From an uncultured cyanobacterium (lineage in GTDB: Bacteria > Cyanobacteriota > Cyanobacteriia > Cyanobacteriales > Nostocaceae), in assembly GCA_963706595.1 (NCBI GenBank), contig OY970166.1, positions 2,464,001-2,528,000 on the forward strand: 64,000 nucleotides of DNA, in the 5' to 3' direction. Positions 345 to 28,862 of the stretch are shown in pieces; positions within the stretch are counted from its first letter, which is position 1; each line of letters opens with the position of its first letter. The notes under the pieces are model-generated. The model worked only from the letters and a program-made list of their open reading frames with translations. It made no database searches and was not told where the DNA came from. The position numbers and the translations under genes were made by a program.

Positions 345-1138
345 ATGAGTTATCTACCAATTTCTAAATTTCTCCGCCGTTACTCTTGGGTAAGTCCCTT
401 AGTCATTTTATTAATTGTTATTATAATTTACGGGTGGGCTTTGCAAGGACTTCAGCTTAATTTTGAACTGCTGACATCTAGCGCCCCCTTCATTGCTGAT
501 TTTATTTCCCGCTTATTTCCTCCCGATTTTAGAGTTATTGATATTGCCATCAAAGCACTGATTGAAACTGTACAGATGTCTCTTTGGGGAACAACCATTG
601 GGGCGATTATCTCTGTACCAATAGCAGTTGCTAGCGCTCGTAATGTTGCTCCTACTTGGCTGCAATGGCTGGCTAATTTGCTGCAAAATGCTGTGCGTTC
701 TGTCCCCTCAATTATTTTAGGGCTAATTTTCGTTGCCGCCACAGGTTTAGGCGCACCAGCAGGCACTCTCGCTTTAAGTATATATACTATCGGCTATCTA
801 GCCAAGTTTTATCAACAAGCCATTGAAGCGTTGAGCCTCGCTCTTTAGAATCTCTAGAAGTTATCGGCGCATCTCGACTGCAAATTGCTCAGTATGGAAT
901 TTTACCGCAAGTGCTACCCCTGAGTTTAGGTTATACCTTATGGATGTTTGAGTACAATATTCGTGCTGCTTCTGTGTTGGGTGTAGTAGGTGCAGGAGGT
1001 ATTGGTTTTCAGTTAAAAAGTTATATTGATGGGTTTGAATATAACAAAGCTACAACCATGATGTTAGTACTTTTAGTAGTAGTGACAGTGATAGATGGTT
1101 TCAGCAGCAAGTTGCGTCGCCGCCTGGAGTCAATATAA
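345..1138 (+). CDS. phnE: Phosphonate ABC transporter permease, split by a 1-nt deletion near 830
   Basis: ORFs 345..848 and 911..1138 join if one G is restored (EAVEPRSLESLEVIGAS). Motifs ETVQMSLWGT, RSVPSIILGLIF and FEYNIRAASVLGVVGAGGIG are present. Confidence 0.85.
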
Positions 1139-1175: not shown

Positions 1176-1292
1176 AATTACGAATTACGTTAGCGTAGCT
1201 CTCCCGTTCGCGTAGCGTTCCGCAGGAAAGGGAGCATTACGAATTACGAATTACGTTAGCGTAGCTCCTCGGAAAGAGGCATTACGAATTAC
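1176..1292. repeat. AATTACG heptamer tandem repeat (STRR-type) interrupted by small hairpin repeat elements
   Basis: AATTACG units at 1176-1189, 1236-1255 and 1281-1292, with TTAGCGTAGCTC...GAGC/GAGGC elements between them. Confidence 0.85.
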
Positions 1293-2246
1293 TTTAAAAT
1301 TTCCTGCGCCCGATTAATATTATTCCGCACAGATTGCGCCGAAATCTGCAAAGCTTCTCTTTCCCCATCGGTGAGATACAATTCCAAAATCTTCTCAACT
1401 CCACCGCAACCCAAACGACAGGGAACACCAATCACAATATCATCTAAACCATATTCACCTTGTAAATAAGTCGCCACAGGTAACAACCGCGACTGATTCA
1501 ACAAAATAGATTCCACCATCACACTCGCAGCAGAAGCAGGGGCAAAAAATGCCCCACCAGTCCGCATCAATTCCACAATTTCCGCGCCCCCATTGCGGGT
1601 TCTCTCTACCAAACGGGCAATTGTGGCTGTATCGAATAATTCTGTAATGGGAATGCCGTTAACCGTCGCATAACGCGACAAGGGAACCATTAAATCACCG
1701 TGGCTACCCAATACCATCGCCTTGACATCAGCCGGTAATACCCCTAATTCTAAAGCAATGAAAGTTTCAAATCTAGCTGAGTCTAACACCCCAGCCATAC
1801 CCATAACTGCGGTGACGTGGTAAACCTGTAGCTTCCCAAGCCAAATATGTCATCACATCTAAGGGATTGGTGACTACTATAAAAATAGCATTGGGAGAAT
1901 AGGCGATCGCACTCTTAGCAGCTTCCACCACAATTTTGGCATTAATTTTCAGCAAATCATCCCGACTCATCCCAGGTTTGCGAGGAATACCGGCAGTAAT
2001 TACCACAATTTCGGAATCAGCCGTATCAGCATAATTAGTTGTCCCGATAATCTGCCGATGATGTAACTCAATACCCCTAGCTTCCATCAAATCTAATGCT
2101 AAACCTTGAGGCATTCCCTCAACAATATCCAGCAACACCACATCTGCAAAATTTTTCTCAGCAATGCGTTGGGCTAAAGTGCTACCAACCTTACCAGCAC
2201 CAACGATGGTGACACGAGGTGAACGGCATAGAATAGGAGAAATCAT
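1289..2246 (-). CDS. mdh: Malate dehydrogenase (LDH-like), split by a 1-nt insertion near 1808
   Basis: GAGKVG nucleotide-binding motif plus TAGIPRKPGMSRDDLL, VTNPLD, GVLDSARF and GSHGD. Removing one base gives PRHRVMGMAG and joins the two ORFs. Confidence 0.9.
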
Positions 2247-9483: not shown

Positions 9484-10152
9484 ATGTTCATGAATTTAGA
9501 TTGGGAAGTTACCTTAGATAAATATGTAGAATGGGAAGAGCAACTTATTCAAAGACAAGAGGTTTTGCAAAAAATATCTACTCAAAATGAAAATTTTATT
9601 GCCCAGCTACTATCTGCTGATAATCCAATTAAGATTGAGCTAGGCGCAGGAAAAGAGCGCCAACTAGAAGGATGGACTACTGTAGATATTAATGGCGATT
9701 GTGACCTCATTTTAGACTTACAAAATCCTCTTCCATTTCCAGATGAAAGTGTCAGTGAAATATACTCTTCTCATGTTCTTGAACACTTTCTTTACCCTAA
9801 TCCAATGGCAGGAATTTTAAATGAATGCCATCGGATCTTAAAACAAGGAGGTATTTTTAGCGTATGCGTACCTAATGCAAGAATATATATTGAGGCATAC
9901 TTGAATCCTGATAAATTTGATCAGAAAAAATACTGCCTATATAAACCCGCTTATCATTACAAATCTCCAATTGATTATATCAACTACATTGCCTATATGG
10001 CTGGTCATCACTTTCATTTGTTCGATGAAGAAAACTTGGTATCTACTTTATCTGAAGCAGGGTTTAAAAATGTTATGTTGAGGGATTTCGATCCAAATAT
10101 TGATCTTGAAGGACGGAGGAATGAATCTATTTATGCCATCTGTGAAAAATAA
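9484..10152 (+). CDS. Class I SAM-dependent methyltransferase-like protein of glycan loci
   Basis: IELGAG, LPFPDESVSEIYSSHVLEH and ECHRILKQGG motifs. Confidence 0.85.
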   Translation: MFMNLDWEVTLDKYVEWEEQLIQRQEVLQKISTQNENFIAQLLSADNPIKIELGAGKERQLEGWTTVDINGDCDLILDLQNPLPFPDESVSEIYSSHVLEHFLYPNPMAGILNECHRILKQGGIFSVCVPNARIYIEAYLNPDKFDQKKYCLYKPAYHYKSPIDYINYIAYMAGHHFHLFDEENLVSTLSEAGFKNVMLRDFDPNIDLEGRRNESIYAICEK

Positions 10153-10325: not shown

Positions 10326-13300
10326 ATGAATAATGAACTCGCTAATTCTGAACTTAACCGCTTGATTCCCCCTGAAATCAAAAATGATGAATTTTATGCT
10401 GTTATTCAAAAAATTTCAGCAGCAGAAGATATTAAAACAGTTTTAGAAATTGGCTCATCTTCAGGAGAAGGAAGTACCGAAGCATTTGTAACTGGACTTC
10501 GGCAAAACCCTAATAAACCCAAATTATTTTGCATGGAAGTTTCCAAAACTAGATTCCATGAATTACAAAAAAAATATATAAATGATGATTTTGTCAATTG
10601 CTATAATGTGTCATCTATTAGCATAAAAAACTTTCCTGACGAGCAAGAAGTTATTGATTTTTATAAAAATACTCAAAATAAGTTACACTTTTATCCCATT
10701 GAGACGGTTCTTAACTGGCTAAAACAAGATATTGAATATGTACATCAATCTGGAGTATCTGACAATGGTATTCAAAAAATTAAGCAAGAGCATAATATTG
10801 ATTATTTTGACTTAGTTTTAATCGATGGTTCAGAATTTACTGGTATAGCTGAACTAAACGAGGTATATGGAGCTAATTTTATTTGCTTAGATGATATTGA
10901 AACATTCAAGAACTATCAAAATCATCATCAGCTTCTTGCAGATCAGAACTATAAATTAATTGCTCAAAATACTTCTGTTAGGAACGGTTACTCTATTTTC
11001 AAGAAAATAGATAGCGTTGAACAGTACATATCACAATATGAAACATCTGAGCAATTGCTTGTCAGAAAAATTGTTAAGTCAGGAATGGTTGTTTTTGATG
11101 TCGGAGCAAATATTGGTGACTATTCAATTCTGCTAAGTAAACTCGTAAATGAATCTGGAAGAGTCTATTCTTTTGAACCAGCAACAGATACTTTTAATAA
11201 ACTACAAAAACGAATTTCTCAATCTAATTTTAATAATGTTTCTTTAACACAAAAAGCAGTTTATTCAAATAATAGCCAAATTGAATTTAATGAGTTTGCA
11301 GAAGACTTCTCAGTTTGGAATAGTATTGGTAAACCACAAATGCTAAATCCAAATGGCTCTGGAAAATATGTACCGATTGTAAACACTGAAATTGTAGAAA
11401 CTGTTACCCTGGATTTCTTCTGTAAAAGTAATAATATTCAGAAAATTGATTATTTAAAAATTGATGTTGAAGGCGCAGAAAGTGATGTTTTGCAAGGATG
11501 TACAGAACTATTAGAAAACAAAGCTATTAGCTTTATCCAGTTTGAAATATCACAAAAAATGCTGGAAGGATTAAATCGTCATGCTCACTCTAGTTTTGAT
11601 ATTTTAGTTAAAAACGGTTATGAATGCCATCGCATTACTCGAAGTGGGGATATTGGGGAAGAAGTAACAAATTCCGATTCTTTCTATGAAAATTATATTG
11701 CTTTTCCTTCCTTACCTATTCATTTCTTTACTATTGTTCTCAACGGACAACCATTTATAAAATACCACATAGAAATATTCAAACAACTTGCTTTTAAATG
11801 GCATTGGCACATTGTTGAAGGTGTAGCAGATTTAAAACATGATACTGGGTGGAGTGTTAGATTAGGTGGACGTATTACTGATGAAATTCATAAAAATGGT
11901 CGTAGTAATGACGGCACTACAGAATATTTAAACGAACTAGCGCAACTTTACCCTGATAATGTCACAATTTACCGGAAGCCAGAAGGTATTTTCTGGGACG
12001 GAAAACGCGAAATGGTGAATGCACCACTTGCTAATCTTCAAGAAGAATGTTTGCTGTGGCAAGTAGATGTGGATGAATTATGGACATTAGAACAGGTTTG
12101 TAATGCCAGAGAAATATTTATTACTAACCCTAATAAAACTGCTGCATTTTATTGGTGCTGGTATTTTGTTGGCGAAAAACTAATTATAAGTACTCGTAAC
12201 TGTTATGCCCAAAACCCTCAACAAGAGTGGCTAAGAACTTGGAGATTCAGGCCTGGAGCATTTTGGGCAGCACATGAACCTCCAGTATTAGTAGAAACTT
12301 TGGCAGATGGACAATATAAAAATATTGCTGATGAAAATCCTTTCTTACATCAAGAGACTGAAAAGTTTGGTTTAGTTTTTCAACATTTTGCCTATGCTAC
12401 AAAAGAACAATTACAATTTAAAGAACAATACTATGGTTATAGTAATGCTGTAGCTCAGTGGGAAGCCTTACAAAAAACACATAAACTACCAATTTTTTTA
12501 CGTGAATATTTTTCCTGGGTTACAGATCAAACTCAAGTAGACATTGCAGATTCACTTGGAATAATACCAATTGCACAAAAAGAAATTGGTAAAAATGATT
12601 TGCAGTTTTTACAACCAGATGAAGTACAGCAAAAAAAATTACAAATTAAAACAATAGTACCAATAATTATTGTTGATGGTGTATTTTTCCAACTCTACGA
12701 AACTGGTATTGCACGTGTCTGGAAATCATTACTAGAAGAATGGGCAAATAACGGATTTGCAAAACATATCGTTGTGCTTAATCGTGCTGGAACTGCTCCT
12801 CAAATCCCTGGTGTTAGATATCGTAATATAGGACGCTACGACTATAACAACACTGCTCCTGACCGAGAAATGCTACAGCAGGTGTGTGATGAAGAAGGAG
12901 CATATTTATTTATCTCTTCTTATTACACTACTCCTCATACCACACCTTCTGTGTTCATGGCCTATGACATGATACCAGAAGTTATGGGATGGGATATGAA
13001 TAATCCCATGTGGCAAGCAAAACATCAAGCTATTCAAACAGCATCTGCTTATATAGCCATTTCTAAACATACCGCATCTGACCTTGCAAGCTGTTTTTCT
13101 GATATACCACTCGAAACTATTACTGTTGCTCATTGTGGTGTTAGTTCTACTTTCTTACCTGCAAAACCCGAAGAAATTAATAATTTTAAAATTAAATACG
13201 GTATTACTAAACCTTACTTACTCTTAGTTGGTGCTGGTGGTGGTTATAAGAATACTCTGTTATTCTTCCAAGCTTTTTCAAAACTTGTCAGCAGTTGTGG

Positions 13301-14147
13301 ATTTGACATTATATTAACTGGAAGTGGTGGTGTATTAGCACCTGAATATCGAGCTTATACATCAGGTAGTGCAGTTTATATGCTGCAACTCAGCGATGAA
13401 GAGTTAGCAATAGCTTATTCTGGTGCTATAGCGCTGGTTTATCCTTCTAAATATGAAGGTTTTGGGATGCCGATAATTGAAGCAATGGCTTGCGGGTGTC
13501 CTGTAATTACTTGTCCTAACGCCTCAATTCCCGAAGCTGCGGGAGAAGCAGCAATATATGTGAATGATGATGATGTGGATGGACTAGCAAATGCACTCTG
13601 TGAGGTGCAAAAACCTAGCATTCGTCAAGCATTGATTTTTGCTGGTTTAGTGCAAGCACAAAAGTTTTCTTGGTCAAATATGGCAGAAACTGTTAGTTCT
13701 GCCTTAATTAAGGCTACTCTTCTGAGTTTGAATCTTAAAGAAATTAATTTCATTATTTTCCCTGATTGGTCACAACCAGAAGAGTCAATTGGTTTAGACT
13801 TGGAGCTAGTTTTGAAGGTGGTAGCAAATCATCCTGATAGTGAAAAAACTACTTTACTGGTCAATACCAAGAACATTTCTGTAGAAGATGCCGAACTATT
13901 TTTATCTAGTGTGGCAATGAATATTCTAATGCAAGAAGATTTAGATATTACCGAGGGATTAGAAATTTCCCTGGTTGCAGATTTGGCAGATATTCAGTGG
14001 AAAGCTTTACTACCTCGCATCAGTGGCAGAATTATCTTAGAGCATGAAGATGAAAACAGCATAATTCAAGCAAAAGCCGAGAATATCACAGCTTATGAAT
14101 TAGAAAGTTTAAATTCAGTTATAGACGAACAGTTTTTTTTTACTTAA
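10326..14147 (+). CDS. Multidomain protein: class I methyltransferase-like + FkbM methyltransferase + GT-A/GT2-like + GT4 glycosyltransferase
   Basis: VLEIGSSSGEG; VFDVGANIG...SFEP...LKIDVEGAE (FkbM); FFTIVLNG...QVDVDE (DXD); YPSKYEGFGMPIIEAMACGCPVI (GT4). Confidence 0.85.
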   Translation: MNNELANSELNRLIPPEIKNDEFYAVIQKISAAEDIKTVLEIGSSSGEGSTEAFVTGLRQNPNKPKLFCMEVSKTRFHELQKKYINDDFVNCYNVSSISIKNFPDEQEVIDFYKNTQNKLHFYPIETVLNWLKQDIEYVHQSGVSDNGIQKIKQEHNIDYFDLVLIDGSEFTGIAELNEVYGANFICLDDIETFKNYQNHHQLLADQNYKLIAQNTSVRNGYSIFKKIDSVEQYISQYETSEQLLVRKIVKSGMVVFDVGANIGDYSILLSKLVNESGRVYSFEPATDTFNKLQKRISQSNFNNVSLTQKAVYSNNSQIEFNEFAEDFSVWNSIGKPQMLNPNGSGKYVPIVNTEIVETVTLDFFCKSNNIQKIDYLKIDVEGAESDVLQGCTELLENKAISFIQFEISQKMLEGLNRHAHSSFDILVKNGYECHRITRSGDIGEEVTNSDSFYENYIAFPSLPIHFFTIVLNGQPFIKYHIEIFKQLAFKWHWHIVEGVADLKHDTGWSVRLGGRITDEIHKNGRSNDGTTEYLNELAQLYPDNVTIYRKPEGIFWDGKREMVNAPLANLQEECLLWQVDVDELWTLEQVCNAREIFITNPNKTAAFYWCWYFVGEKLIISTRNCYAQNPQQEWLRTWRFRPGAFWAAHEPPVLVETLADGQYKNIADENPFLHQETEKFGLVFQHFAYATKEQLQFKEQYYGYSNAVAQWEALQKTHKLPIFLREYFSWVTDQTQVDIADSLGIIPIAQKEIGKNDLQFLQPDEVQQKKLQIKTIVPIIIVDGVFFQLYETGIARVWKSLLEEWANNGFAKHIVVLNRAGTAPQIPGVRYRNIGRYDYNNTAPDREMLQQVCDEEGAYLFISSYYTTPHTTPSVFMAYDMIPEVMGWDMNNPMWQAKHQAIQTASAYIAISKHTASDLASCFSDIPLETITVAHCGVSSTFLPAKPEEINNFKIKYGITKPYLLLVGAGGGYKNTLLFFQAFSKLVSSCGFDIILTGSGGVLAPEYRAYTSGSAVYMLQLSDEELAIAYSGAIALVYPSKYEGFGMPIIEAMACGCPVITCPNASIPEAAGEAAIYVNDDDVDGLANALCEVQKPSIRQALIFAGLVQAQKFSWSNMAETVSSALIKATLLSLNLKEINFIIFPDWSQPEESIGLDLELVLKVVANHPDSEKTTLLVNTKNISVEDAELFLSSVAMNILMQEDLDITEGLEISLVADLADIQWKALLPRISGRIILEHEDENSIIQAKAENITAYELESLNSVIDEQFFFT

Positions 14148-15811
14148 GTAACAAACTCTACTCTCAAGACAAATGGCAAGAGGCTATTGCACAATTTCAA
14201 GAACTTCTCAAAATCCAATCATGTGATGCAGAAGTTTATTGGCAATTAAGTGAGTGCTATAGACAGTTAAACCTATTAGATGAATATTTCCAAACACTCC
14301 AGCAAGGAATTAAACTTCATCCTAGAGATGGGCAATTGCATTTTTCATTAATTGTTAACTTGCGGGTTCATGGGCATGTTCAGGAAGCTATTAATTGTGC
14401 CGAAAATGCCTGTAAATACTTACCTGAGAATTACACCTTTCAAATTTTTAAGTATTTAATAGTTCCATCACTATACAATAACCCAGAAGAAATTAGCTTC
14501 TATCGGCAACGCTATACTCAGGGACTGCAAGATTTAACTCAGGAAACTTCTCTGAAAACCCCTGAAGAAAAAAATAGTGCCTTAGCAGGTATAGGTCGGC
14601 TGACTAACTTTTACTTATCATTTCAAGCACAAAATGATATTGAATTACAACGTCAGTATGGCGAGTTAGTGCATAAAATTATGGCAGCCAACTTCCCCCA
14701 ATGGGTAGTTCCTTTATCTATGCCACAACTTCAGCCTAATCAAAAAATTAGGATTGGCTATGCTTCAAATTACCTACATTCTTATAGTGGAACTTTATGG
14801 TTACTTGGCTGGCTACGTTACTGTAATCATGAACACTTTGAAATTTATTGTTACTACACAGGAAACACTCCTGATGCAATAACTCAAAAATTTCAAGAAT
14901 ATAGTGATGTATTTCACCATATTCCGCATAACTTATCCGCAGTTTGTCAACAGATAATTGCCCATAAGCTGCACATTCTAGTTTATCCCGAAATTGGTAT
15001 GGACGCACCAACTATGCAAATGGCAGGTTTGCGGCTTGCACCTGTGCAGTGTACAGCTTGGGGTCATCCAGTAACAACTGGCTTACCGACAATTGATTAT
15101 TTCTTATCTAGTGAGTTAATGGAAGCAGAAAATGCCCAAGAACATTACTCAGAGAAATTAATTCTTTTACCTAATATTGGTGTTTCGTACCCTAAACCAT
15201 ACATTCCTCCTGTTAGCAAAACTCGTTCAGATTATGGTTTAAGTGATGCAGATATAATTTATTTATGTTGTCAAGCACCTTTTAAATATTTACCACAATA
15301 TGATTTTATCTTGGCAGAAATTGCTAGTCGTGTGCCAAAAGCTAAATTTCTCTTTCTGCGTGGTGAACTACTTAAACAACGTCTAAAACGTGCTTTTGCT
15401 GCTGTTGATTTAGATTTTCAAGATTACTGTGTGTTTCTGACGATTCCAGAACGGCTAGATTATTTAATGATTAACCTACTTTCAGATGTTTACTTAGATA
15501 CATTTACTTGGTCTGGTGGTAATACTAGCTTAGAAGCCATAGCCTGTAATCTTCCCATTGTCACTTGTCCAGGGGAGTTTATGCGGGGTCGTCACACTGA
15601 TAGTTTTTTTAAAATGATCGGTGTCACAGATACTATTGCTAGTAATCAACAAGAATATATTGAAATTGTGGTTAATTTGGGATTAAATCGAGAGTGGAGA
15701 AATGATATTGTTGAAAAAGTGAAGAAAAATAAAGATCGTCTATTTGATGATCAAGTTTGTGTGAAAGGTCTAGAGGATTTTTATAAACAGGTTGTTATAA
15801 AAAAAATGTAA
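14141..15811 (+). CDS. TPR + GT41 (SPINDLY/O-GlcNAc transferase-like) coding region, open from the T9 tract
   Basis: KIRIGYAS, RLAPVQCTAWGHPVTTGLPTIDYFLS and DVYLDTFTWSGGNTSLEAI motifs. The frame of ORF 14336..15811 stays open back to 14141, encoding TPR-like YLSNKLYSQDKWQEAIAQFQELLKIQ, with no ATG start. Confidence 0.85.
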   Translation, partial: YLSNKLYSQDKWQEAIAQFQELLKIQSCDAEVYWQLSECYRQLNLLDEYFQTLQQGIKLHPRDGQLHFSLIVNLRVHGHVQEAINCAENACKYLPENYTFQIFKYLIVPSLYNNPEEISFYRQRYTQGLQDLTQETSLKTPEEKNSALAGIGRLTNFYLSFQAQNDIELQRQYGELVHKIMAANFPQWVVPLSMPQLQPNQKIRIGYASNYLHSYSGTLWLLGWLRYCNHEHFEIYCYYTGNTPDAITQKFQEYSDVFHHIPHNLSAVCQQIIAHKLHILVYPEIGMDAPTMQMAGLRLAPVQCTAWGHPVTTGLPTIDYFLSSELMEAENAQEHYSEKLILLPNIGVSYPKPYIPPVSKTRSDYGLSDADIIYLCCQAPFKYLPQYDFILAEIASRVPKAKFLFLRGELLKQRLKRAFAAVDLDFQDYCVFLTIPERLDYLMINLLSDVYLDTFTWSGGNTSLEAIACNLPIVTCPGEFMRGRHTDSFFKMIGVTDTIASNQQEYIEIVVNLGLNREWRNDIVEKVKKNKDRLFDDQVCVKGLEDFYKQVVIKKM

Positions 15812-15931: not shown

Positions 15932-16098
15932 AATATAAATTCCTCTTTGTGAGTAGTTATCATTTATAATGATGTATTTGTCATCACATAATACTAATAA
16001 TCGCCCTTAATTCAAAGATTAACATAATTCATGGCGTAAGTCCTATTATTAGATTTTCTGGTTGGCTTTTCAGACATAATGCGATAAAATTTAAAGTC

Positions 16099-16335
16099 AT
16101 GACAACCGCAAAACCAACAATTAATTCTGTTATTGTCCCAAAAAGACTACCCTTTTTGGAATCAATCTGTTGGCAAACAGCAGATGTATATAGGTTTACT
16201 CTAGAAGAAATGCTAAGTCGTTACGAGCGTGGTTGGACATATCGTACACTGTTTAACAACCTTGAAGGTGAGGAACTTGCTTTCCTCAAGAACCTTGCTA
16301 TAAGGTATAAATCCTGGTTGCAAGTTGATTTATGA
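16099..16335 (+). CDS. Small putative antitoxin partner of the downstream nucleotidyltransferase
   Basis: 78 aa (LPFLESICWQ...YERGW) with an ATGA overlap onto the AbiEii-like gene. Confidence 0.65.
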   Translation: MTTAKPTINSVIVPKRLPFLESICWQTADVYRFTLEEMLSRYERGWTYRTLFNNLEGEELAFLKNLAIRYKSWLQVDL

Positions 16336-17093
16336 CATTCAGATTAGAACACCATAATAAAATTCTCACGATTCTTGAATCTTTAGACTCTGAAGTCCTT
16401 ATTGAGGGTTCTGCTTACTTCGGTGGTGGGACTCTTCTTGCTCTTGATTTTGAAGAATACAGATGGAGTAACGACATTGATTTTATTGCTTCTGTTGGTA
16501 GAGAAGGCTACAAATACCTCCGTAAAGTAGTATTTGACGGTGGGTATGAAGCATTATTTCGTGATTTGAGTAAAATCAAAATTGGACGTGGTATGACTAA
16601 CCAATATGGAATCAGGATGATAGTTTTTGTAGATGATGTGCCTATCAAAACAGAAATTATTGCGGAAACTCGTTTCCAACCTGACCCGCCAAGATATCCC
16701 AAGTGGTCGCCTGTTCCTTGCTTAAGTCTCTATGACTGTTTTACCTCTAAACTGCTGTCAAATTCCGACCGCTTCATGGATGACAGCGTTGAGGCGAGAG
16801 ATTTAATTGACCTAGCAGTTCTCAGATTACAATCTCCAATCCCTGCAATATCAATTGATAAAGCCGAGAAAGCCTATGAGGTAATGCGTCCTTTGCTCAT
16901 AGCAATACAACGCTTTCAGTCAAGACCAAATTACAGAGAAAAATTTTTTGTGGGACTACAAGTTGATAAAGCTCAGATCCCCAAAATTATTGACGGTATT
17001 GATTTATTAGCAGAAGATTTAGGTTTATCCCACACTCTAAGGCTTTTTCAAGAACAGCACGATATATTTGAAGATTTAGAATCGTGCTTCTGA
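16332..17093 (+). CDS. AbiEii/AbiGii-family nucleotidyltransferase toxin
   Basis: FGGGTLLAL...YRWSNDIDF and a C-terminal KL...R...RDLIDL motif. Confidence 0.85.
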   Translation: MTFRLEHHNKILTILESLDSEVLIEGSAYFGGGTLLALDFEEYRWSNDIDFIASVGREGYKYLRKVVFDGGYEALFRDLSKIKIGRGMTNQYGIRMIVFVDDVPIKTEIIAETRFQPDPPRYPKWSPVPCLSLYDCFTSKLLSNSDRFMDDSVEARDLIDLAVLRLQSPIPAISIDKAEKAYEVMRPLLIAIQRFQSRPNYREKFFVGLQVDKAQIPKIIDGIDLLAEDLGLSHTLRLFQEQHDIFEDLESCF

Positions 17094-17239
17094 AAACCAG
17101 AGGACTGAAGTCCTCACTACGAGCTTTTAAGCAATTATTGTTTACGATAATTTTCTCTACTCCTACGTGAATTCTTCTATATCATACATAATGCGATAAA
17201 ATTCAAGAGTAAAGAATGTGAAACCGTGAGAAGTTAAAC

Positions 17240-17494
17240 ATGAAAACAGTCCCCATCCAATTACCAGAAACAGTATTTTCTTCGCTCCGTAAAAATCCTG
17301 AAGAGTTTGTTCAGGAAATGAGAATTGCAGCCGCAGTTAAATGGTATGAAATCGGTAATATATCCCAAAATAAAGCCGCCGAAATTGCTGGGCTAACTCG
17401 TGCAGAATTTATCAACGCTTTATCTCGTTATCAAGTTGATTTCATTCAATACACTGCGCAAGAATTGGCTGAGGAAATAGCGAATGTTGATTAA
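17240..17494 (+). CDS. UPF0175-family putative antitoxin
   Basis: EMRIAAAVKWYEIGNISQNKAAEIAGLTRAEFI (HTH-like); overlaps the next gene. Confidence 0.8.
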   Translation: MKTVPIQLPETVFSSLRKNPEEFVQEMRIAAAVKWYEIGNISQNKAAEIAGLTRAEFINALSRYQVDFIQYTAQELAEEIANVD

Positions 17495-17972
17495 TCGTAT
17501 TATCATTAATTCTTCGCCTCTAATTGTTTTATTCAAAAGTAAACAAGCTGAACTCTTAGCACAACTATTTACAGAAATCTTAGTTCCTGAAGGGGTGTTT
17601 GAGGAGGTAACTAAAGGAGGAGGAGATGATATTGCTTCAAGACAATTACCTACTGTTTCTTGGATACAAATAGTAAAACTCGATAGCATCGCACCTGAAG
17701 TAGCAGCTTGGGATTTAGGAAGAGGAGAATCACAAGTATTAAGTTTAGCTTTGAGGAATTCAGATTATGCCGCTATTGTGGATGATAGAGCAGCACGGCG
17801 TTGTGGTCAATCATTAAGTATTCTTACTATGGGTACTGGAGGTTTACTCATTTTAGCAAAAAGACGGGGACTTATTACCAGCATATCTCCAGGAATTCAG
17901 GCTTTACGCGATGCTGGTTTATGGTTGTCAGATAGTATAGTCAATATACTTAAAAATCAAGCAGGTGAATAA
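17484..17972 (+). CDS. DUF3368-family PIN-domain putative toxin
   Basis: IINSSPLI, LGRGESQVLSLA, IVDDRAARR and GTGGLLILAKRRGLI motifs. Confidence 0.82.
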   Translation: MLINRIIINSSPLIVLFKSKQAELLAQLFTEILVPEGVFEEVTKGGGDDIASRQLPTVSWIQIVKLDSIAPEVAAWDLGRGESQVLSLALRNSDYAAIVDDRAARRCGQSLSILTMGTGGLLILAKRRGLITSISPGIQALRDAGLWLSDSIVNILKNQAGE

Positions 17973-17981
17973 CGTTCTAAT

Positions 17982-18043
17982 GTTCGTAGTCAGCACTTCA
18001 GTGCTTCCGGAGAGAGGAGGACTGAAGTCCTCACTACAAGCTT
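17982..18043. repeat. GTAG-type REP-like inverted repeat; a half copy lies at 17100-17126
   Basis: GTAGTCAGCACTTCAGTGCT...AGGACTGAAGTCCTCACTAC. The 21-mer GAGGACTGAAGTCCTCACTAC is identical at 17100-17120 and 18017-18037. Confidence 0.85.
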
Positions 18044-20231
18044 ATGTAATATACCTTTGCCACATTTGCTGATAAGCATTTTCCATATCACGAGTAAACT
18101 GTTTAGCATTCCACAGTGGTGCAGTTTGACGAGACTGTAATAACTTCCAATGTATTTGTCGTCTCAAATTAGCATCAGTACCCAAACGCACACCCCACTC
18201 AATATACTCGTCATCACTCCAAGCAATACCTTCACTAATACCTGCATTTACCATCATGGTGTAACTATTCCGTGCTGAAAATTGCTCTCCCACTTTCGTG
18301 ACTAGAGGTACACCCACCCATAAAGTTTCCATTGTCGTGGTTGCACCATTATAGGGATAGGTATCTAACACCACATCAGCAATCTGTAAATTAGCACGAT
18401 GAATTGAGGATGACGGGACTTTTTCTAAAAAGCGTAATCTCTGTTTATTTACTCCTTCTGACTCCGCAATCTCTTCAAAAAATTCTCTGACTACACCTAC
18501 ATTTTTATTAATATCTTTGATTAAAAAATAACTATTTGGTACTTCCTTGAGGATTTTCATCTGTAAACGCACATTATCAGGGTTGCGTTTATAACCAGAC
18601 TGGGCGCTAAAATAAATGACCGCATCACTAGGAATTTCTAAATCCTCTCGTCGCAAAGTCGGTACACCTACTTCAAAACCATCAACAGCTAGATAGGTAT
18701 TTGGTAATCGCCAAATTTTTTCACTGTAATATTCTTGGGCATATTCTGGTAAAACATAATTATCAGCAATATAGTAATCAATAGCAGGTATCCCCGAACC
18801 ATCCCAACCTAACCATGTTACTTGAATTGGTGCTGGTTTTAATGCCACTGCTTCCAAAGTATTTTTACAAGTCATACTATCCAAATCTACTAAAATATCA
18901 ATTTCATCTTGATGAATTTGTTCAGCAATTTCGATTCCATCTGGCCCTAATTTCCTGACATGATCTGAATTTTGTTCATACCAATCTTGCAGAAAGTCGT
19001 GAATATGAGAACGGTAAGTAGCAAAATAAGTATAAATTTCAAATTCTTCTCTATTATGATGTTGATATAACCACCGTGCTAACCAACCTACTGAATGTTC
19101 TCGCAAACAATGGGAAAGATAACCAATTCTTAATTTCTTTGGTGCTTTTATTCTTTGAATATTGGCTTGAGAATAACGGTTATATTGTTCTTGAGCATAA
19201 GCTTGTATGCTGCTTTGGCATATTTTCAGGACTTCATTATGTAAAAAACGGTTTTGTTGAGCATCATCACGTAGATAAGGAAGAAAATATGTACAATGAA
19301 TTATACGATAAATTGCATCACGATCTAACAATAATTGTTGTTCAATTAGTTGAGATAAATTATCTTTATATTGTTTGATAAAAGGGATTGCTTTAGTCCA
19401 ATTTACACCAGTAAATAGTAAAGTATTTAAAATAATATAGTTAGAACACAATAAATCAGGTAAATTTTTAGATATAGAATAAGCTTGATAAGCAAACTCA
19501 ATTGCTACATCAACTTGATTAACATTTTGATGAAATTCAGATAGCGAAGTCAGAGCCTCTACATTATTAGGTTGTATCTGGAGACATAAATTACAGTATT
19601 TAATCGCTAAGTCAAAGCGACTCTCTTTCAGAATTGCTTGATTGGCAGTAATTAAGAAATAATCAATCAGCTTTAATTTATCCTCTATATAGGGAATACA
19701 AACTTCTGCAAACTCTAGAACCCAATCTAAAGCAGGATATTTTTTTAGAGCTTCTTTTAAAACTAGCATTAAAAAAGTAGGGTCAATATTTAAATTTTCA
19801 TCCTGAATTTTTTTAATTAATTCTAAGGTTTTTAAATTATCATTGCTAATACTATTTAACTTTGTAGATAGATGTACTAGTTTTAATAAATTCAAAACAT
19901 TATCTTGATTAATTTCCCGGATATGGTGACGAATTGCCCAAGCTAATACATAGCTATCTAAATCTTCTTGGCGTTGTGCTTCCGTGTCTAAAATGTTGAC
20001 TAATTCCTGAATGTACTGCCCCATATTTGCTTCTTCTTCGTCAATAAGGGCTAACATCCAAGCAGTTTGCGCTTCTGCTTCTTGACCATGTAATAATAAA
20101 GCTAGACCTAAATACCAATGGTATTTTTTTATTTCTGGATACTGTTCACTTAATTCTTCATAAAAATTGATTGCATTGCCATATTCTCCATTAGTCAGAA
20201 ATTGAAAAGCTTGTAATTCTTGAGGGTTCAT
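18042..20231 (-). CDS. TPR + GT41 O-GlcNAc transferase-like protein (ogtA paralogue)
   Basis: N-terminal TPRs; LRIGYLSHCLREHSVGWL, KPAPIQVTWLGWDGSG and DVVLDTYPYNGATTTMETLW motifs. Confidence 0.9.
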   Translation of the reverse strand: MNPQELQAFQFLTNGEYGNAINFYEELSEQYPEIKKYHWYLGLALLLHGQEAEAQTAWMLALIDEEEANMGQYIQELVNILDTEAQRQEDLDSYVLAWAIRHHIREINQDNVLNLLKLVHLSTKLNSISNDNLKTLELIKKIQDENLNIDPTFLMLVLKEALKKYPALDWVLEFAEVCIPYIEDKLKLIDYFLITANQAILKESRFDLAIKYCNLCLQIQPNNVEALTSLSEFHQNVNQVDVAIEFAYQAYSISKNLPDLLCSNYIILNTLLFTGVNWTKAIPFIKQYKDNLSQLIEQQLLLDRDAIYRIIHCTYFLPYLRDDAQQNRFLHNEVLKICQSSIQAYAQEQYNRYSQANIQRIKAPKKLRIGYLSHCLREHSVGWLARWLYQHHNREEFEIYTYFATYRSHIHDFLQDWYEQNSDHVRKLGPDGIEIAEQIHQDEIDILVDLDSMTCKNTLEAVALKPAPIQVTWLGWDGSGIPAIDYYIADNYVLPEYAQEYYSEKIWRLPNTYLAVDGFEVGVPTLRREDLEIPSDAVIYFSAQSGYKRNPDNVRLQMKILKEVPNSYFLIKDINKNVGVVREFFEEIAESEGVNKQRLRFLEKVPSSSIHRANLQIADVVLDTYPYNGATTTMETLWVGVPLVTKVGEQFSARNSYTMMVNAGISEGIAWSDDEYIEWGVRLGTDANLRRQIHWKLLQSRQTAPLWNAKQFTRDMENAYQQMWQRYIT

Positions 20232-20299
20232 TTTTTTACAGTAAAAACCTATTCATATCACAAATGTAAGCTGAGAGATATTTGAAAAGTTTTGGCGAA

Positions 20300-20462
20300 T
20301 ATAGAAATCCGATTTGATTATTGAAAAAAGCTAAGTATATGTATATGTAGGGTGTGTTATGGCTTTAGCCTAACGCACCCACCGTCTTCCAGGTCTTGGT
20401 GCTGTACTCTCCTCAATAACACACCCTACGTGTGTTTCATAAATCAAATATGAATCCTATAG
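20300..20462. mobile_element. MITE with about 27-bp imperfect TIRs and an internal GTAG REP-like pair
   Basis: Left TATAGAAATCCGATTTGATTATTGAAA; reverse complement of the right end TATAGGATTCATATTTGATTTATGAAA. Internal GTAGGGTGTGTTA...TAACACACCCTAC. Confidence 0.75.
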
Positions 20463-20467
20463 AGTTG

Positions 20468-22690
20468 TTATTGCTGATTCTCCATCACATATTTCTGCCA
20501 CATTTGCTGATAAGCGTTTTCCATATCACGAGTAAACTGTTTACCATTCCACAGTGGTGCAATTTGACGCGACTGTAATAACTTCCAATTTATTTGTTGT
20601 CTCAAATTAGCATCAGTACCTAAACGCACACCCCACTGAATATACTCCTCATCACTCCAAGCTATACCTTCACTAATACCTGCATTTACCATCATGGTGT
20701 AACTATTCCGTGCCGAAAATTGCTCACCTACTCTTGTTACTAGAGGTACACCCATCCATAGAGTTTCCATTGTCGTGGTTGCACCATTATAGGGATAGGT
20801 ATCTAACACCACATCAGCAATAGTTAAATTAGCACGATGAATTGAGGATGACGGGACTTTTTCTAAAAAGCGTAATCTCTGTTTATTTACTCCTTCTGAC
20901 TCCGCAATTTGTTCAAAGAACTCTCTGACTACACCTACATCTTTATTAATATCTTTGATGCAAAAATAACTATTTGGTACTTCCTTGAGGATTTTCATCT
21001 GTAAACGCACATTATCAGGGTTGCGTTTATAACCAGACTGGGCGCTAAAATAAATGACTGCATCACTAGGAATTTCTAAATCCTCTCGTCGCAAAGTCGG
21101 TACACCTACTTCAAAACCATCAACAGCTAGATAGGTATTTGGTAATCGCCAAATTTTTTCACTGTAATATTCTTGAGCATATTCTGGTAAAACATAATTA
21201 TCAGCAATATAGTAATCAATAGCAGGTATACCCGAACCATCCCAACCTAACCATGTTACTTGAATTGGTGCTGGTTTTAATGCCACTGCTTCACAGCTAA
21301 TATCCGCAGTCATACTATCCAAATCTATTAAAATATCAATTTCATCTTGATGAATTTGTTCAGCAATTTCAATTCCATCTCGCCCTAATTTCCTGACATG
21401 ATCTGAATTTTGTTCATACCAATCTTGCAGAAAGTCACGAATATGAAAACGGTAAGTAGCAAAATAAGTATAAATTTCAAATTCTTCTCTATTGTGATGT
21501 TGATATAACCATCTTGCTAACCAACCTACTGAATGTTCTCGCAAACAATGGGAAAGATAACCTATTTTTAGTTTTTTCTTAGGGGCTTTTATTCTTTGAA
21601 TATTAGCGTGAGAATAGCGGTTATATTGTTCTTGAGCATAAGCTTGTATGCTGGTTTGGCATATTTTCAGGATTTCATTATGTAAAAAGCGGTTTTGTCG
21701 AGCAGCATCACGCAAATAGGGCAGATAATATGTACAATTAAGTAAACGATAAATTTTATTTCTCTCTAAATTCGGTTTTTCTGTAATTAGCTTATTTAAA
21801 TAACTTTCATACTGTTGGATAACTGGGATAGCTTCATACCAACGTCCACCAGAACGTAATAAACCCTGTAATACCATGACATTAGCATTGATTAAATCAG
21901 TGGTATGAGTTGATAAATTCTGTATTTTTTGAGAAAGATTAATTCCTTGGTCAAAATTGCTAACTTCATAATAAAAAGTTGCTAAGTGACTCAGGACTTC
22001 AGAAATAACTTCTGCATCTGGATAATTAATTTTTAAAGCTAGTTCAGCATATTTAATTGCTAAATTAAACTTGTGTCCTGTATAAGCTGCTTCCGTAGCA
22101 GTTATCATCAAACAGTGAGTCATTTGTAAGGGATCTAAATAGTGAATACACGCTTCAGAAAATTCTAATATCCAAAGCTCAAACCATAATAATTTGAGAG
22201 ATTTTTTTAAAACAAAAAATAGTAATTTTCTATCTATTGCTTCTATGTCAGAATTTAAGATTTCAATAATGCCTAATTCTTCAAAGTTATTTTGAGTCAG
22301 ATTTTCTAAATCTAAAGATAATTTGATTAGCTCTAAAATATTATTAATATTACCAGGATAAATCTCTCGTAAGTGTTGACGAATAACCCAAGCAAGTTGA
22401 TATTGTGTTAATTCTTCCTGTCTTTGTGCTTCTGTTTGTAATACCTTGACTAATTCATGAGTCCACTGCTCAATTTCTGCTTCTTCTCCCTCAAATATTG
22501 CTAACATCCAAGTAGTTTGTGCTTCTGCTTCTTGACCTTGTAAAAGTAAGGATAATCCAAGATACCAATGATATTCTTTAATTTCTGCTTGACTATTAAT
22601 TAATTCTTGATAAATTTCTCCTGCTTGATAATACTCACCTTGTTGAAAAGTTCTAAGCGCTCGTTTTGCTTGAGATTCTAGATTATTCAT
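20468..22690 (-). CDS. ogtA: TPR + GT41 O-GlcNAc transferase-like protein immediately downstream of pilA
   Basis: Same GT41 motifs as above. The pilA-adjacent position matches the ogtA arrangement described for Nostoc punctiforme. Confidence 0.8.
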   Translation of the reverse strand: MNNLESQAKRALRTFQQGEYYQAGEIYQELINSQAEIKEYHWYLGLSLLLQGQEAEAQTTWMLAIFEGEEAEIEQWTHELVKVLQTEAQRQEELTQYQLAWVIRQHLREIYPGNINNILELIKLSLDLENLTQNNFEELGIIEILNSDIEAIDRKLLFFVLKKSLKLLWFELWILEFSEACIHYLDPLQMTHCLMITATEAAYTGHKFNLAIKYAELALKINYPDAEVISEVLSHLATFYYEVSNFDQGINLSQKIQNLSTHTTDLINANVMVLQGLLRSGGRWYEAIPVIQQYESYLNKLITEKPNLERNKIYRLLNCTYYLPYLRDAARQNRFLHNEILKICQTSIQAYAQEQYNRYSHANIQRIKAPKKKLKIGYLSHCLREHSVGWLARWLYQHHNREEFEIYTYFATYRFHIRDFLQDWYEQNSDHVRKLGRDGIEIAEQIHQDEIDILIDLDSMTADISCEAVALKPAPIQVTWLGWDGSGIPAIDYYIADNYVLPEYAQEYYSEKIWRLPNTYLAVDGFEVGVPTLRREDLEIPSDAVIYFSAQSGYKRNPDNVRLQMKILKEVPNSYFCIKDINKDVGVVREFFEQIAESEGVNKQRLRFLEKVPSSSIHRANLTIADVVLDTYPYNGATTTMETLWMGVPLVTRVGEQFSARNSYTMMVNAGISEGIAWSDEEYIQWGVRLGTDANLRQQINWKLLQSRQIAPLWNGKQFTRDMENAYQQMWQKYVMENQQ

Positions 22691-22818: not shown

Positions 22819-23388
22819 TTATTCAATTGCTTTGAAGCCCTTAGTATCAACACATATTGGTGCAACTGTGCTAACAGCAGGAATAACAGTTACACCATCG
22901 GCAGCGAAAGCACCTGCATCTTTCTTCTGGCAAAGGATAGCAGTTGTTGTTGTCGCACCACCAGATAGAATTAGGTCAGTAACACCTATAAAGGATCTAA
23001 GATTACTGGTATTAATCGGATTAGCAACGTTCAGTGAGGCAATGAAAGCACCAGCATCATCTAAAGTACCACCACCAATTTTCTCAACTGTGTATTTATA
23101 GTTAGTAGTTTGAGTTGCAATACCTAGACCCATGTTGGTAATATCAGTAGCAAACTTCTGGTTTTCTAGATAGAATGTTTGTTGACCTCGGTTCATAGAA
23201 CCAGCGTATTGTTTACCCTCAGATTCTCTGGCTTTGTTAGCTTGGTTCAAGAAGGAAGGTAATGCAATAGCGGACAAAATACCGATGATGATGATTACAA
23301 CAAGTAATTCAATAAGTGTAAAACCTTGCTCGTCTTTCTTTTTATTGAGGATGTGTTGGAGAAACTTGGCTTTTAATTCGGTTTTCAT
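22819..23388 (-). CDS. pilA: Type IV major pilin
   Basis: Basic leader and class III signal G|FTLIELLVVIIIIGILSAIALPSF; NQANKARESE; two C-terminal Cys. Confidence 0.93.
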   Translation of the reverse strand: MKTELKAKFLQHILNKKKDEQGFTLIELLVVIIIIGILSAIALPSFLNQANKARESEGKQYAGSMNRGQQTFYLENQKFATDITNMGLGIATQTTNYKYTVEKIGGGTLDDAGAFIASLNVANPINTSNLRSFIGVTDLILSGGATTTTAILCQKKDAGAFAADGVTVIPAVSTVAPICVDTKGFKAIE

Positions 23389-23498: not shown

Positions 23499-24830
23499 CT
23501 ACGAAGATTGACGCTCTAGCATTATGTAACCAAGGCTTTCTAGCCTCAAAAACCACTTTTTCACTATATTGAAAGCTTGCTCCTCATCTGTCGGTGTTGA
23601 GGTTACGGGGTCTATTGGTCTAAATTGTTTCCAACGCTCTACTAGAGACATCATCGGCTGGGGTTGATCGAACAAAGGTATCAAGCAACTGGCTATTGAG
23701 CTTTCTATCTCAATAAATCCTGGTGTCGGCGATAAATATTGACTAATCACAAATGGTCGAATTTCTTGAAGAGAAGCGATGATACCTTCTTGGAACTTGG
23801 AATTTTTTAACTGAGGACACAGATGCACTTGCGCTGTATGCCAATCAGAGTCAGTCCATTCGGAAATGGGTAAAACATCCTGTGCTGACTGAGGATGACC
23901 ACACCAAAAGTCAATCAGCCGATGAATAGGATGTAGTAGTTCAAATAAATGTAGGCTCTGTTCTACAGAAATATCTGGTAAGCTCATAGCCAGAAAAGCA
24001 GGTAAATTATCTGGCTCTTTGAATAAATCCATCAATTCCCACTGTCGCCAGTTAACCATACTGATAAACTCTAGGTCAGAGTCTCGCAAAGCGGTAAACA
24101 AATCAGTTACGGTGTAACCTTTATCCCCTTGAAACAAGTAATTCATTAAAATTAATTCTTTTCCGTCTTCCCCTTCATAATTGGAGTTCCACGTTGTAGC
24201 TTTAAGCTGGACATTATCCTTCAAAGCCTTCATACTTTCCACTACGATGTCCATTTCCATGTCTTCTGGGTTTCCTTCCATTAAACCCATCATGGTGAAG
24301 ACCTTTTGAGCGCGAAACAGATGGAATCTCTGAAGTGAACTATGTAGATTACTCCGAATAATCCCATCTGGCTTTAAAACTGCTTTCATTGCTCCTAACG
24401 CCACAGTCAAATCAGGAAAGAGATACAGCAGTTCATCACAATTAATATAATCAAATTGATAATTTAGGGTTGGCAATTCCTGAAGAGGCAAGACATGAAA
24501 CTCTGCGTTATCAAATCCATGATGTTCTAAACGCTGCCGAGCTAATTTAATTGATTCCTCTGAAATATCAACTCCGATAATTTTTGCTCCTGGATTAGCT
24601 TCTGCTAGAACTAGAGATTTATAACCAGTACCACATCCAGCATCTAAAATTACTTTATCTTTGGTATTTATAACTTTTTGGTTTCTTACATAATAAGATG
24701 TGAATAAGTTATGAATATAAAGTAAATTGGGTTTTTCTTTAGGTGATTGTTCAAGGGGAATTCGGGGATATGGACAACTGTCAAATTGTTGACGAATTTT
24801 CTCTAGTAGCTCAGATTCGATATTTACCAT
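23499..24830 (-). CDS. Class I SAM-dependent methyltransferase upstream of pilA
   Basis: ILDAGCGTG, IIGVDIS, FDYINC and LKPDGII motifs. Confidence 0.88.
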   Translation of the reverse strand: MVNIESELLEKIRQQFDSCPYPRIPLEQSPKEKPNLLYIHNLFTSYYVRNQKVINTKDKVILDAGCGTGYKSLVLAEANPGAKIIGVDISEESIKLARQRLEHHGFDNAEFHVLPLQELPTLNYQFDYINCDELLYLFPDLTVALGAMKAVLKPDGIIRSNLHSSLQRFHLFRAQKVFTMMGLMEGNPEDMEMDIVVESMKALKDNVQLKATTWNSNYEGEDGKELILMNYLFQGDKGYTVTDLFTALRDSDLEFISMVNWRQWELMDLFKEPDNLPAFLAMSLPDISVEQSLHLFELLHPIHRLIDFWCGHPQSAQDVLPISEWTDSDWHTAQVHLCPQLKNSKFQEGIIASLQEIRPFVISQYLSPTPGFIEIESSIASCLIPLFDQPQPMMSLVERWKQFRPIDPVTSTPTDEEQAFNIVKKWFLRLESLGYIMLERQSS

Positions 24831-26139: not shown

Positions 26140-26952
26140 CAGGGCTGTTTCATTCCACAAGAGCAAGCAGTTTGTCAATATCATTAGAAAGAAATCTATG
26201 AGCAATTGTGATGGAAGTATGACCATTGCGGCGCAGTATATTCATAGCGATCGCTCTGAGAACTGAGAGATTTGCCGGAGCATTCCCCAGACGGATAGTG
26301 GAATTATCTTCCTTGAGAACGGTATCTTTAACCCAATGAAGGCAATTTTCGATACTCCAATGACCGCGAATGCCACAAGCAAATTCTGCGGCTGTGCGAA
26401 TCAGGCTACTGATATAACAGACAATCTCATGATATTTTTTACCCCCTCGTGTTCCGAATCTTTCCACTCGAATCAAAGATTTAATACCAGTCCATTGTGG
26501 GTCAATTCCATTCAAATCATCGAAAACTTCGACGATACGTGTTGTGAGTCTATCCCTAGTTTTTTCGGTTTGTACATAACGACTCTTTGGTTTTGTTAGT
26601 GCCGCAATGCGTTGAATATGACGGTGCAGTTTTGGCTGATTATTTTTGACGGCAATGACGTAATCGTTGTTGCTGTCTATGATTAACTGGCAAGTTTTTT
26701 TTGGCAATGTAGGGAATCAAAGCTAAATACAGCACCTTTTATTTCCAAAGTGGCAATTAATCTTTGTACGGTCTGGATTTCACTCTCCGTCTTATTTTCT
26801 AGTTTCTCCATACCTAAGACCAGCCCTCTTTTACTCGCAAATACTGAGACTATGCTGACAAAGTTCTGACTACATGACTTGTAGTTTTCAACTGTTCCTT
26901 TAATGCTTTTACCATCTATGCCACACCATTCTGATGGTTCTAAATCAACGTA

Positions 26953-27057
26953 GTGGACTGACAAGCTTAAAATAGTGCATTAGATAAAAGCAGAAAACAT
27001 TGATTTATCTCAATTTTGTCAAAAATCTATTGCAACATTTTAGCCTTGTCACCCCAG
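26953..27057. mobile_element. 105-bp non-autonomous IS630-type MITE (left copy)
   Basis: Ends GTGGACTGACAAGCTTAAAATAGTGCATTAG and CTATTGCAACATTTTAGCCTTGTCACCCCAG, flanked by TA at 26951-26952 and 27058-27059. Confidence 0.85.
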
Positions 27058-27059
27058 TA

Positions 27060-28308: not shown

Positions 28309-28310
28309 TA

Positions 28311-28416
28311 CTGGCGTGGCAAGCTTAAAATAGTGCATTAGGTAAAAAGCAGAAAACATTGATTTATCTCGATTTTCTCAAAAATCTATTGCAACATTTT
28401 AGCCTTGTCACGCCAG
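28311..28416. mobile_element. 106-bp non-autonomous IS630-type MITE (right copy, same orientation as the left)
   Basis: Near-identical to 26953-27057, flanked by TA at 28309-28310 and 28417-28418. Confidence 0.85.
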
Positions 28417-28862
28417 TAGTGTTGCGCCCAATCATTGAATTTTGCCGCCAGTTTATCAAAGTCTACTCCCATCACGACACGTCTGATAGTTGAGTACGAA
28501 GGGACACCATGCTTTTGGATTCCAAATGTCTCTATCAATGTGCGCCGATGCCGTTTGACAAAATCTCCCCATGCACGATACCCGACATATCCACTCATGG
28601 TACCCATTATGACAAACAGCAATACCAACCAAAGTGGATGCCTTCTACCATCAGTCGTTCTAAAGTCTTCAACTTGCCTCAGTTGTTCAATCAGATTTGC
28701 ACCCATAATTTTTTATCCCCTTAACACTTGCAATTTTACCTGTTTTAGGGAATGAAACAGCCCTGGGGATTAAGGGGGGTAAATTCAGGGTCTGTGCTTG
28801 ATCTGCATCTCTTAGCTGATTATGCTATATTAGCCGTAGTCGTTATGAGTACAATTAATATT

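Follow-up and report, generated by a model that had tools for sequence, protein, structure and literature searches.

How does a gene cut in two by a run of nine Ts (T9) come to keep both of its parts? The question is raised by a window of 64,000 nucleotides (the whole stretch of DNA analysed) from an uncultured cyanobacterium of the Nostocaceae (GenBank assembly GCA_963706595.1, contig OY970166.1, positions 2,464,001 to 2,528,000), which contains a giant gene for a multi-domain glycosylation enzyme. Upstream of the run the giant encodes methyltransferase (MT) and glycosyltransferase (GT) domains followed by an unnamed linker domain (LNK); downstream, in the -1 frame, it encodes a tetratricopeptide repeat (TPR) region and a glycosyltransferase of family GT41. 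Judging from comparison with related genomes, we consider it probable, though well short of certain, that transcriptional slippage at the T9 run lets the gene make two enzymes, a short one that ends in the linker and a longer one extended by GT41, with the neighbouring pilin as their probable target. The elements of the break are as follows:

10326-14147, plus strand: ORF1, the open reading frame (ORF) of the templated short product, 1273 aa (from the ORF list)
13731-14114, plus strand: LNK, unnamed, about 130 aa, predicted five-strand alpha/beta domain, one copy in this genome
14132-14141, plus strand: G followed by T9, putative recoding site (from conservation among the genes with a -1 break, here -1 genes)
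14145-14147, plus strand: TAA, the zero-frame stop, overlapping Leu-Ser codons of the -1 frame
14144-15811, plus strand: -1 frame with the TPR region and GT41 catalytic domains, 555 aa, without a shared start codon (PF13844; ratio of nonsynonymous to synonymous substitution rates, dN/dS)

In the window, ORF1 ends GAA CAG TTT TTT TTT ACT TAA (14127-14147), with the nine Ts at 14133-14141. From 14099 to 15811 no stop interrupts the -1 frame, which reads ...FFYLSNKLYSQDKWQEAIAQF; a single added T would yield a fused protein of 1272+1+555 = 1828 aa. The earliest potential starts in this frame 3' of the run are TTG at codon 65, GTG at codon 176 and ATG at codon 180. An environmental contig from a relative (80% likeness) has one base more than the window, somewhere within 14141-14483. 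The genome holds 74 A/T runs of nine and two runs of ten, and scans for promoters and terminators gave chance-level results only. A second sense-strand T9, in G000 at C1:4645290, lies 31 bases upstream of the end of an open frame.

The most trivial answer would be a sequencing or assembly error in this genome, and the preliminary description of the locus had itself warned of indels in the window. The warning was apt: the malate dehydrogenase-like gene mdh (1289-2246, minus strand) is split by one extra base near 1809, a break that is private to this assembly (absent from five of five relatives) and probably an assembly error; the assembly is 94% complete and consists of one contig. A DNA search across the family matched 213 of 389 genomes; the counts that follow are among the matches listed, with 112 weaker ones left out, and the sample is therefore incomplete. 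We examined 131 genomes (listed junction-spanning matches and some partial ones), 108 of which had both sides of the junction, and a pattern scan of all species representatives added three, giving 111 genomes with the junction; the filter found no junction in 23 of the 131, and linker ends were inspected for most of these. Chance matches without a homologous junction were dropped (9 of 64 genome and 12 of 24 metagenome pattern matches).

Among the 111 genomes, the downstream part is in the -1 frame with T9 in 62 and with T8 in one, in the +1 frame in three (two T8, one T9), and in frame with T9 in 15, with T8 in two and without a run in 28; T10 occurs in none. The -1 class is set by frame and not by the run, and exactly T9 is found in 62 of its 63 members. 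These 62 genomes represent 20 Nostocaceae genera plus Kastovskya (L143) and Coleofasciculus (L179), that is, 22 genera and two families. Twelve junction-bearing metagenome loci comprise eight -1/T9 (five of them repeating genomes already in the count), one -1/T8, two +1/T8 and one in-frame T10 (L226). Contig names of the NODE/k141 kind, typical of short-read assemblies, belong to 26 of the 44 named -1 loci. The alignment of orthologues that had been suggested as a check thus places the break at the same tract throughout the 62 genomes and 22 genera. Since it is common to several genera, unlike the private mdh indel, the T9 break is not a sequencing error: the feared outcome, a true T10 with orthologues uniformly fused, is ruled out, and with the identical break in 61 other genomes of the 22 genera an error in this genome is refuted, its probability being practically nil.

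Is the sequence beyond the break still part of the gene? The downstream frame exceeds 500 aa in 60 of the 62 T9/-1 genes; of the other two, one runs off its contig and the second contains an internal stop. In a sample of 25 of 60 -1 genes, dN/dS after the break is 0.16 in codons 1-20, 0.24 in codons 1-64 and 0.12 from codon 180; the same three stretches give 0.15, 0.25 and 0.11 in in-frame genes with the run, and 0.25, 0.29 and 0.11 in in-frame genes without it. In none of 112 cases does either of the remaining two frames stay open across the 64 codons. Purifying selection acts on the -1 frame from the first codon onward, ahead of any start codon that the genes share. The claim that the T9 break joins two parts of one gene stands on this constraint and on the recurrence of the break at one site, and recoding of the T9 allele is the probable source of the TPR-GT41 module.

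Recoding could be dispensed with if ribosomes re-initiated at the overlapping stop (TTG-A), or at a codon further inside, and made a separate TPR-GT41 protein, the run having some other cause. TTG is the first -1 codon in 30 of the 63 genes, G300 keeps its downstream frame despite a stop 5' of the run, and in G030 the linker is followed by a genuinely separate GT41 gene with an ATG start. An overlapping TTG start is nevertheless not general, because the first codon is TTA in 20 of the 63 genes and CTA or CTG in six, the window's own first codon falling among these non-TTG spellings. Constraint is also present where no start is available: dN/dS is 0.18 in the 25 of 56 -1 genes without ATG, GTG or TTG in codons 1-20, and 0.20 in the 17 genes that lack all three over 40 codons. 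Met180 is conserved equally in fused genes, and the invariance of G+T9 would be left unexplained. In the window the first ATG of the downstream part is at codon 180, and no start codon is shared among -1 genes; we regard re-initiation as very improbable.

The preliminary description had proposed DNA phase variation of the Neisseria/Campylobacter type, in which T9 would be the OFF state and a T10 subpopulation the ON state. Consistent with such switching, T8 alleles occur in 5 of the 111 genomes and an in-frame T10 in one metagenome locus, in-frame and -1 states alternate on the tree, also among proteins 93-97% alike, and variation of flagellin glycosylation driven by such tracts is known from Campylobacter (PMC3068675). 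However, what sets the 17 in-frame run-bearing genes apart is a non-T base beside the run and not a tenth T, and relaxed selection, expected of a module found OFF in 62 of 62 snapshots, is not seen. With T10 in 0 of 111 genomes and a downstream frame under equal constraint in T9/-1 and in fused genes, recoding of a fixed T9 allele is the better fit, and phase variation retains a slim chance. Of the earlier proposal that slippage governs attachment of the GT41 module, the part that survives is slippage at the run, as RNA-level recoding that we infer; switching of the DNA tract is not supported.

How the run would be recoded is best judged from the run itself. Of 55 canonical-phase -1 genes, all 55 have G+T9 without variation. 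In the same genes CAA outnumbers CAG three to one, TTC makes up 21% of Phe codons, two of 19 conserved Phe columns never use TTC, and no other invariant stretch of real bases downstream is longer than 6 nt (two longer invariant runs in that alignment are read as all-gap columns). Run-free relatives have L-V/I-F at the run position, so the protein does not need three Phe. Six -1 genes have the run in another codon phase, and it is still nine long. A damaged run goes with a lost or broken GT41 part in five genomes (G238, G019, G335, G213 and G315); in G238 the run is interrupted and the GT41 module deleted. As judged by these patterns, the T9 run itself is selected. At locus L114 (4879-5200) the run is interrupted and about 445 GT41 codons are deleted between two GCGATCGC-like sites, with an in-frame scar; we take the GCGATCGC-like site to be the cyanobacterial HIP1 palindrome.

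A programmed -1 ribosomal frameshift on U_UUU_UUU would produce the same two products from a uniform U9 mRNA. The run offers a perfect X_XXY_YYZ heptamer in the zero frame, present in both codon phases seen; UUY is shift-prone in E. coli, and in bacteria stimulators are common but not always present (PMC4066793); and such a shift fits all the selection evidence for the fused product equally. Seven Ts would be enough for the heptamer, and its last base could be C, yet the run stays at nine in both phases and is never spelled with TTC. An upstream Shine-Dalgarno (SD)-like 4-mer occurs in 3 of 63 -1 genes, with no conserved SD-like sequence among them, and no hairpin is conserved downstream at the usual spacing (mean z -0.8, z below -2 in 4 of 30 sampled genes; the consensus fold 3' of the run has -3.65 kcal/mol and 5 pairs, 30 nt away). 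Furthermore, a -1 shift cannot reach the downstream frame of the +1 genes G015 and G334, which is intact there, as it is in one metagenome allele. We therefore favour slippage of RNA polymerase, on the grounds that nine is kept in two phases, the last T is never C, no ribosomal stimulator is seen and the +1 alleles are intact, and we leave ribosomal frameshifting a small but real chance. Nine is a common slippage threshold, used as A9 by T. thermophilus dnaX (PMC1088944), and slippage of the E. coli polymerase prefers poly(T) of 7 or more (PMC6260861).

Under transcriptional slippage, RNA polymerase would slip on G+T9, a conserved frame break within one gene. In -1 genes, the window included, the short product would be templated, and a transcript with one extra U would give the long TPR-GT41 product. 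In in-frame run-bearing genes the long product would be templated, and a slip either way would halt translation a few codons 3' of the run: loss of one U brings a stop within 4 codons in 17 of 17 such genes, and gain of one U within 8 codons in 16 of 17. In run-free lineages both products would come from two genes, each with its own LNK. Indeed, 27 of the 28 run-free loci have a separate LNK-ended gene upstream of an LNK-TPR-GT41 gene, or both re-fused with tandem LNKs, the two-gene form being the usual one, and genome-wide LNK matches number one in 54 of 59 -1 genomes and two or more in 28 of 28 run-free genomes. On these arrangements, the single T9 gene and the pair of genes are two alternative genetic routes to the same predicted product pair. 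At locus L023 (2236-2250) a separate TPR-GT41 gene with its own ATG comes straight after an LNK-ended gene, which would be a third route to both products.

The history of the locus was traced on a FastTree phylogeny of 108 rows (G213, G315 and G409 left out), the root of which, G049, was chosen and not tested. Run-bearing rows sit at the base of the tree and throughout it. Presence of the run requires 4 changes, the frame state of the 81 run-bearing rows at least 14; counted over well-supported branches only, the -1 label must change at least 12 times. These data bear on a further possibility, to which we give an equally slim chance as to phase variation: that RNA slippage and ribosomal shifting both operate, or that an old frameshift is tolerated through leaky slippage, the short product having no role. 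The -1 frame is reached near the run through at least six different junction spellings, a variety that would follow if the run rescued indels in its neighbourhood, and such 'savior' slippage has been described (PMC5009743). A tolerated frameshift should revert and stay so, yet the -1 state is the majority, in-frame genes keep the run, and run-free genomes retain a separate linker-ended gene.

Several observations weigh against slippage as we propose it. Slippage in the RNA and the existence of both products are predictions from DNA sequence, and a shift on the U_UUU_UUU heptamer would yield the same protein. Length change at the DNA level does occur (T8 in 5 of 111 genomes, T10 in 1 of 12 metagenome loci, L226). 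The stop is overlapped by TTG in 30 of 63 -1 genes, and G300, with its stop just 5' of the run, has an intact downstream frame all the same. In-frame run-bearing genomes are mixed in their LNK content, 9 of 16 having one and 7 of 16 more, and two run-free fusions whose spacer differs, G035 and G159, lie outside both the junction filter and the LNK count. The association of run loss with LNK duplication is not statistically shown, because just 4 independent pairs are available, of which 2 agree and 2 carry no information (p 0.5).

The linker on which this comparison turns was missed by the domain order first given (MT, FkbM-type MT, GT-A, GT4, TPR, GT41), which is otherwise as listed and has an exact natural in-frame counterpart, the 1836-aa protein of L158. 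LNK, just before the run, has no meaningful match among Pfam or PDB sequences; its Atlas matches, an unnamed cyanobacterial cluster and GT-B fragments below 0.8, are leads only. In an AlphaFold model of the L158 protein, LNK is a five-strand alpha/beta domain with pLDDT of about 80-90, and the Phe run sits in the helix after it that opens the TPRs; the short product would therefore keep LNK whole. Many other cyanobacterial GT4 proteins naturally end in LNK, and so do proteins 93% identical to the fused L158 protein. A role for LNK as an assembly tag is possible. Across loci L237-L263, LNK terminates many large cyanobacterial GT/MT proteins, often in several copies per genome.

The domains that precede LNK in the giant are:

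10326-11021, plus strand: putative class I S-adenosylmethionine (SAM) methyltransferase-like domain (invariant EIGSS.G.GST, DGSE and DD motifs)
11097-11621, plus strand: FkbM-family methyltransferase domain (PF05050, E 5.7e-21; TIGR01444, E 1.9e-34; above cut-off)
11712-12620, plus strand: putative GT-A (GT2-like) domain with an invariant DxD (AF2 topology, moderate confidence)
12666-13715, plus strand: GT4 (GT-B) glycosyltransferase domain (PF00534, PF13692, PF13439; above cut-off)

The five enzymes proposed earlier are thus secured in part: FkbM, GT4 and GT41 pass Pfam, while the first methyltransferase and the GT-A domain have no Pfam or NCBIfam match above cut-off. The first domain has no match among PDB sequences either, and its Atlas match at 0.93, a cluster in which 38% of the members carry Methyltransf_24, is a lead only; its closest Atlas clusters are mostly viral (Uroviricota), with Chlamydiota among them. 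GT2 matches to the GT-A domain are weak (10 of 36 members, best E 0.027; family matches reach E 0.002-0.03), and a single-sequence AlphaFold model of residues 1-775 reached a pLDDT of 32. The fold of the GT4 domain matches MshA and PimB' (Z about 20), in a fold search whose rows covered the GT4 part of the alignment-based model only; the model itself was good enough to use for GT4, LNK and the TPRs. PF13844 matches the GT41 region with E 2.4e-28 (99 bits against a cut-off of 25), Pfam TPR matches preceding it fall just under cut-off, and its matches among PDB sequences include OGT (E 5.6e-35), SPY/SPINDLY and HMW1C-type enzymes. The module is accordingly predicted to be a protein glycosyltransferase. 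OGT, SPINDLY and HMW1C-type enzymes use different sugar donors, and GlcNAc is a candidate for the sugar that the giant would transfer. The modules 5' of the linker vary: the 56 complete -1 genes fall under at least 8 architecture labels. The five-enzyme line, which might build a single glycan in series, is therefore one variant of a cassette system.

What might the giant act on? Around it the window contains:

345-848, plus strand: PhnE-like ABC permease ORF with an abrupt end, in a region without match in the five relatives searched
9484-10152, plus strand: methyltransferase gene upstream of the giant (PF08241)
16054-17972: AbiEii-type toxin-antitoxin-like gene and DUF3368 gene, a pair between the giant and the ogtA-like genes
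18042-22690, minus strand: two tandem OgtA-like GT41 genes, 18042-20231 and 20468-22690, convergent with the giant (PF13844; synteny)
22819-23388, minus strand: type IV pilin gene, pilA-like (PF07963, PF16734)
23499-24830, minus strand: methyltransferase gene upstream of pilA (PF13847)
26150-28706: transposase-like fragments, two nested sets upstream of pilA, with the pair 27114-28294 split in two ORFs

The split transposase pair presumably resembles IS630-type elements. Convergent pilA and ogtA genes lie downstream of the giant in 35 of the 43 loci long enough to show them. On account of this synteny with pilA, we infer that the giant acts on pilin, and the neighbouring pilin is probably its substrate. 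In related systems, OgtA of N. punctiforme (Npun_F0677) is required for PilA accumulation and motility, and Ogt of S. elongatus (Synpcc7942_0051) for PilA glycosylation (PMC9306852, PMC12288463, PMC6495340). The cyanobacterial Ogt/OgtA-PilA system resembles the present locus in having GT41 enzymes beside pilA (PMC9306852, PMC12288463); the GT41 of the giant differs in being a further, convergent one, 27-30% identical to the OgtA-like proteins and placed behind variable GT/MT modules via a putative recoding site.

As for recoding, the closest likeness is to T. thermophilus dnaX (A9; tau and gamma), where a chromosomal nine-base run is likewise followed at once by a stop and a C-terminal module sets the products apart (PMC1088944). 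The giant differs from dnaX in its sense-strand T run, its conservation across two families, the variation of its templated product by lineage, and the use of gene duplication instead in some lineages. The slippage site of Shigella mxiE is itself a T9 run. In mxiE, spa13, spa33 and mxiA of Shigella and tssM of Citrobacter, slippage lengthens or shortens a component of a surface machine (PMC5009743, PMC4256274). Whereas those are secretion genes of narrow range, the giant is a multi-domain glycosylation gene of free-living cyanobacteria. With Neisseria pgl and Campylobacter Cj1295 it shares a homopolymer within a glycan-modifying gene for a surface filament. Tracts of that type vary in length between cells and are mostly poly-G. 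In the giant, by contrast, the length is fixed at nine, with T10 in 0 of 111 genomes. Slippage at A8-A10 runs has also been proposed in the same family of organisms, for insertion sequence (IS) elements of Nostoc sp. PCC 7120 (PMC1088944); those elements are mobile and their A-runs variable, and the four PCC 7120 rows in the supplement of that source are not this gene. In the literature on cyanobacterial slippage and on frameshifting in glycosyltransferases that we covered, with most subscription papers outside its scope, we found no account of the T9 site.

Judged by its wide conservation, the T9 tract is a genuine recoding site within a glycosylation gene of modular build. To our knowledge, polymerase slippage is known in few non-mobile chromosomal genes, and in those mostly within one genus; the present site spans at least 22 genera of filamentous cyanobacteria. 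One practical consequence is that gene callers split or truncate the giant in dozens of genomes. The family also supplies natural controls: in-frame alleles that keep the run, run-free alleles with the duplicated domain, and damaged-run alleles without the downstream module. The locus thereby offers a direct way to learn whether selection acts on an isoform ratio that slippage sets, in the setting of pilus glycosylation and hormogonium motility. More tentatively, and as a possibility that we would not call likely, an ancient, family-wide slippage switch may set the isoform ratio of a modular pilin-glycan synthase, in which a constant linker-T9-TPR-GT41 unit stands behind swappable transferase/methyltransferase cassettes; lineages would flip the templated isoform or trade the switch for LNK duplication, and both isoforms would be needed for pilus glycosylation and motility.

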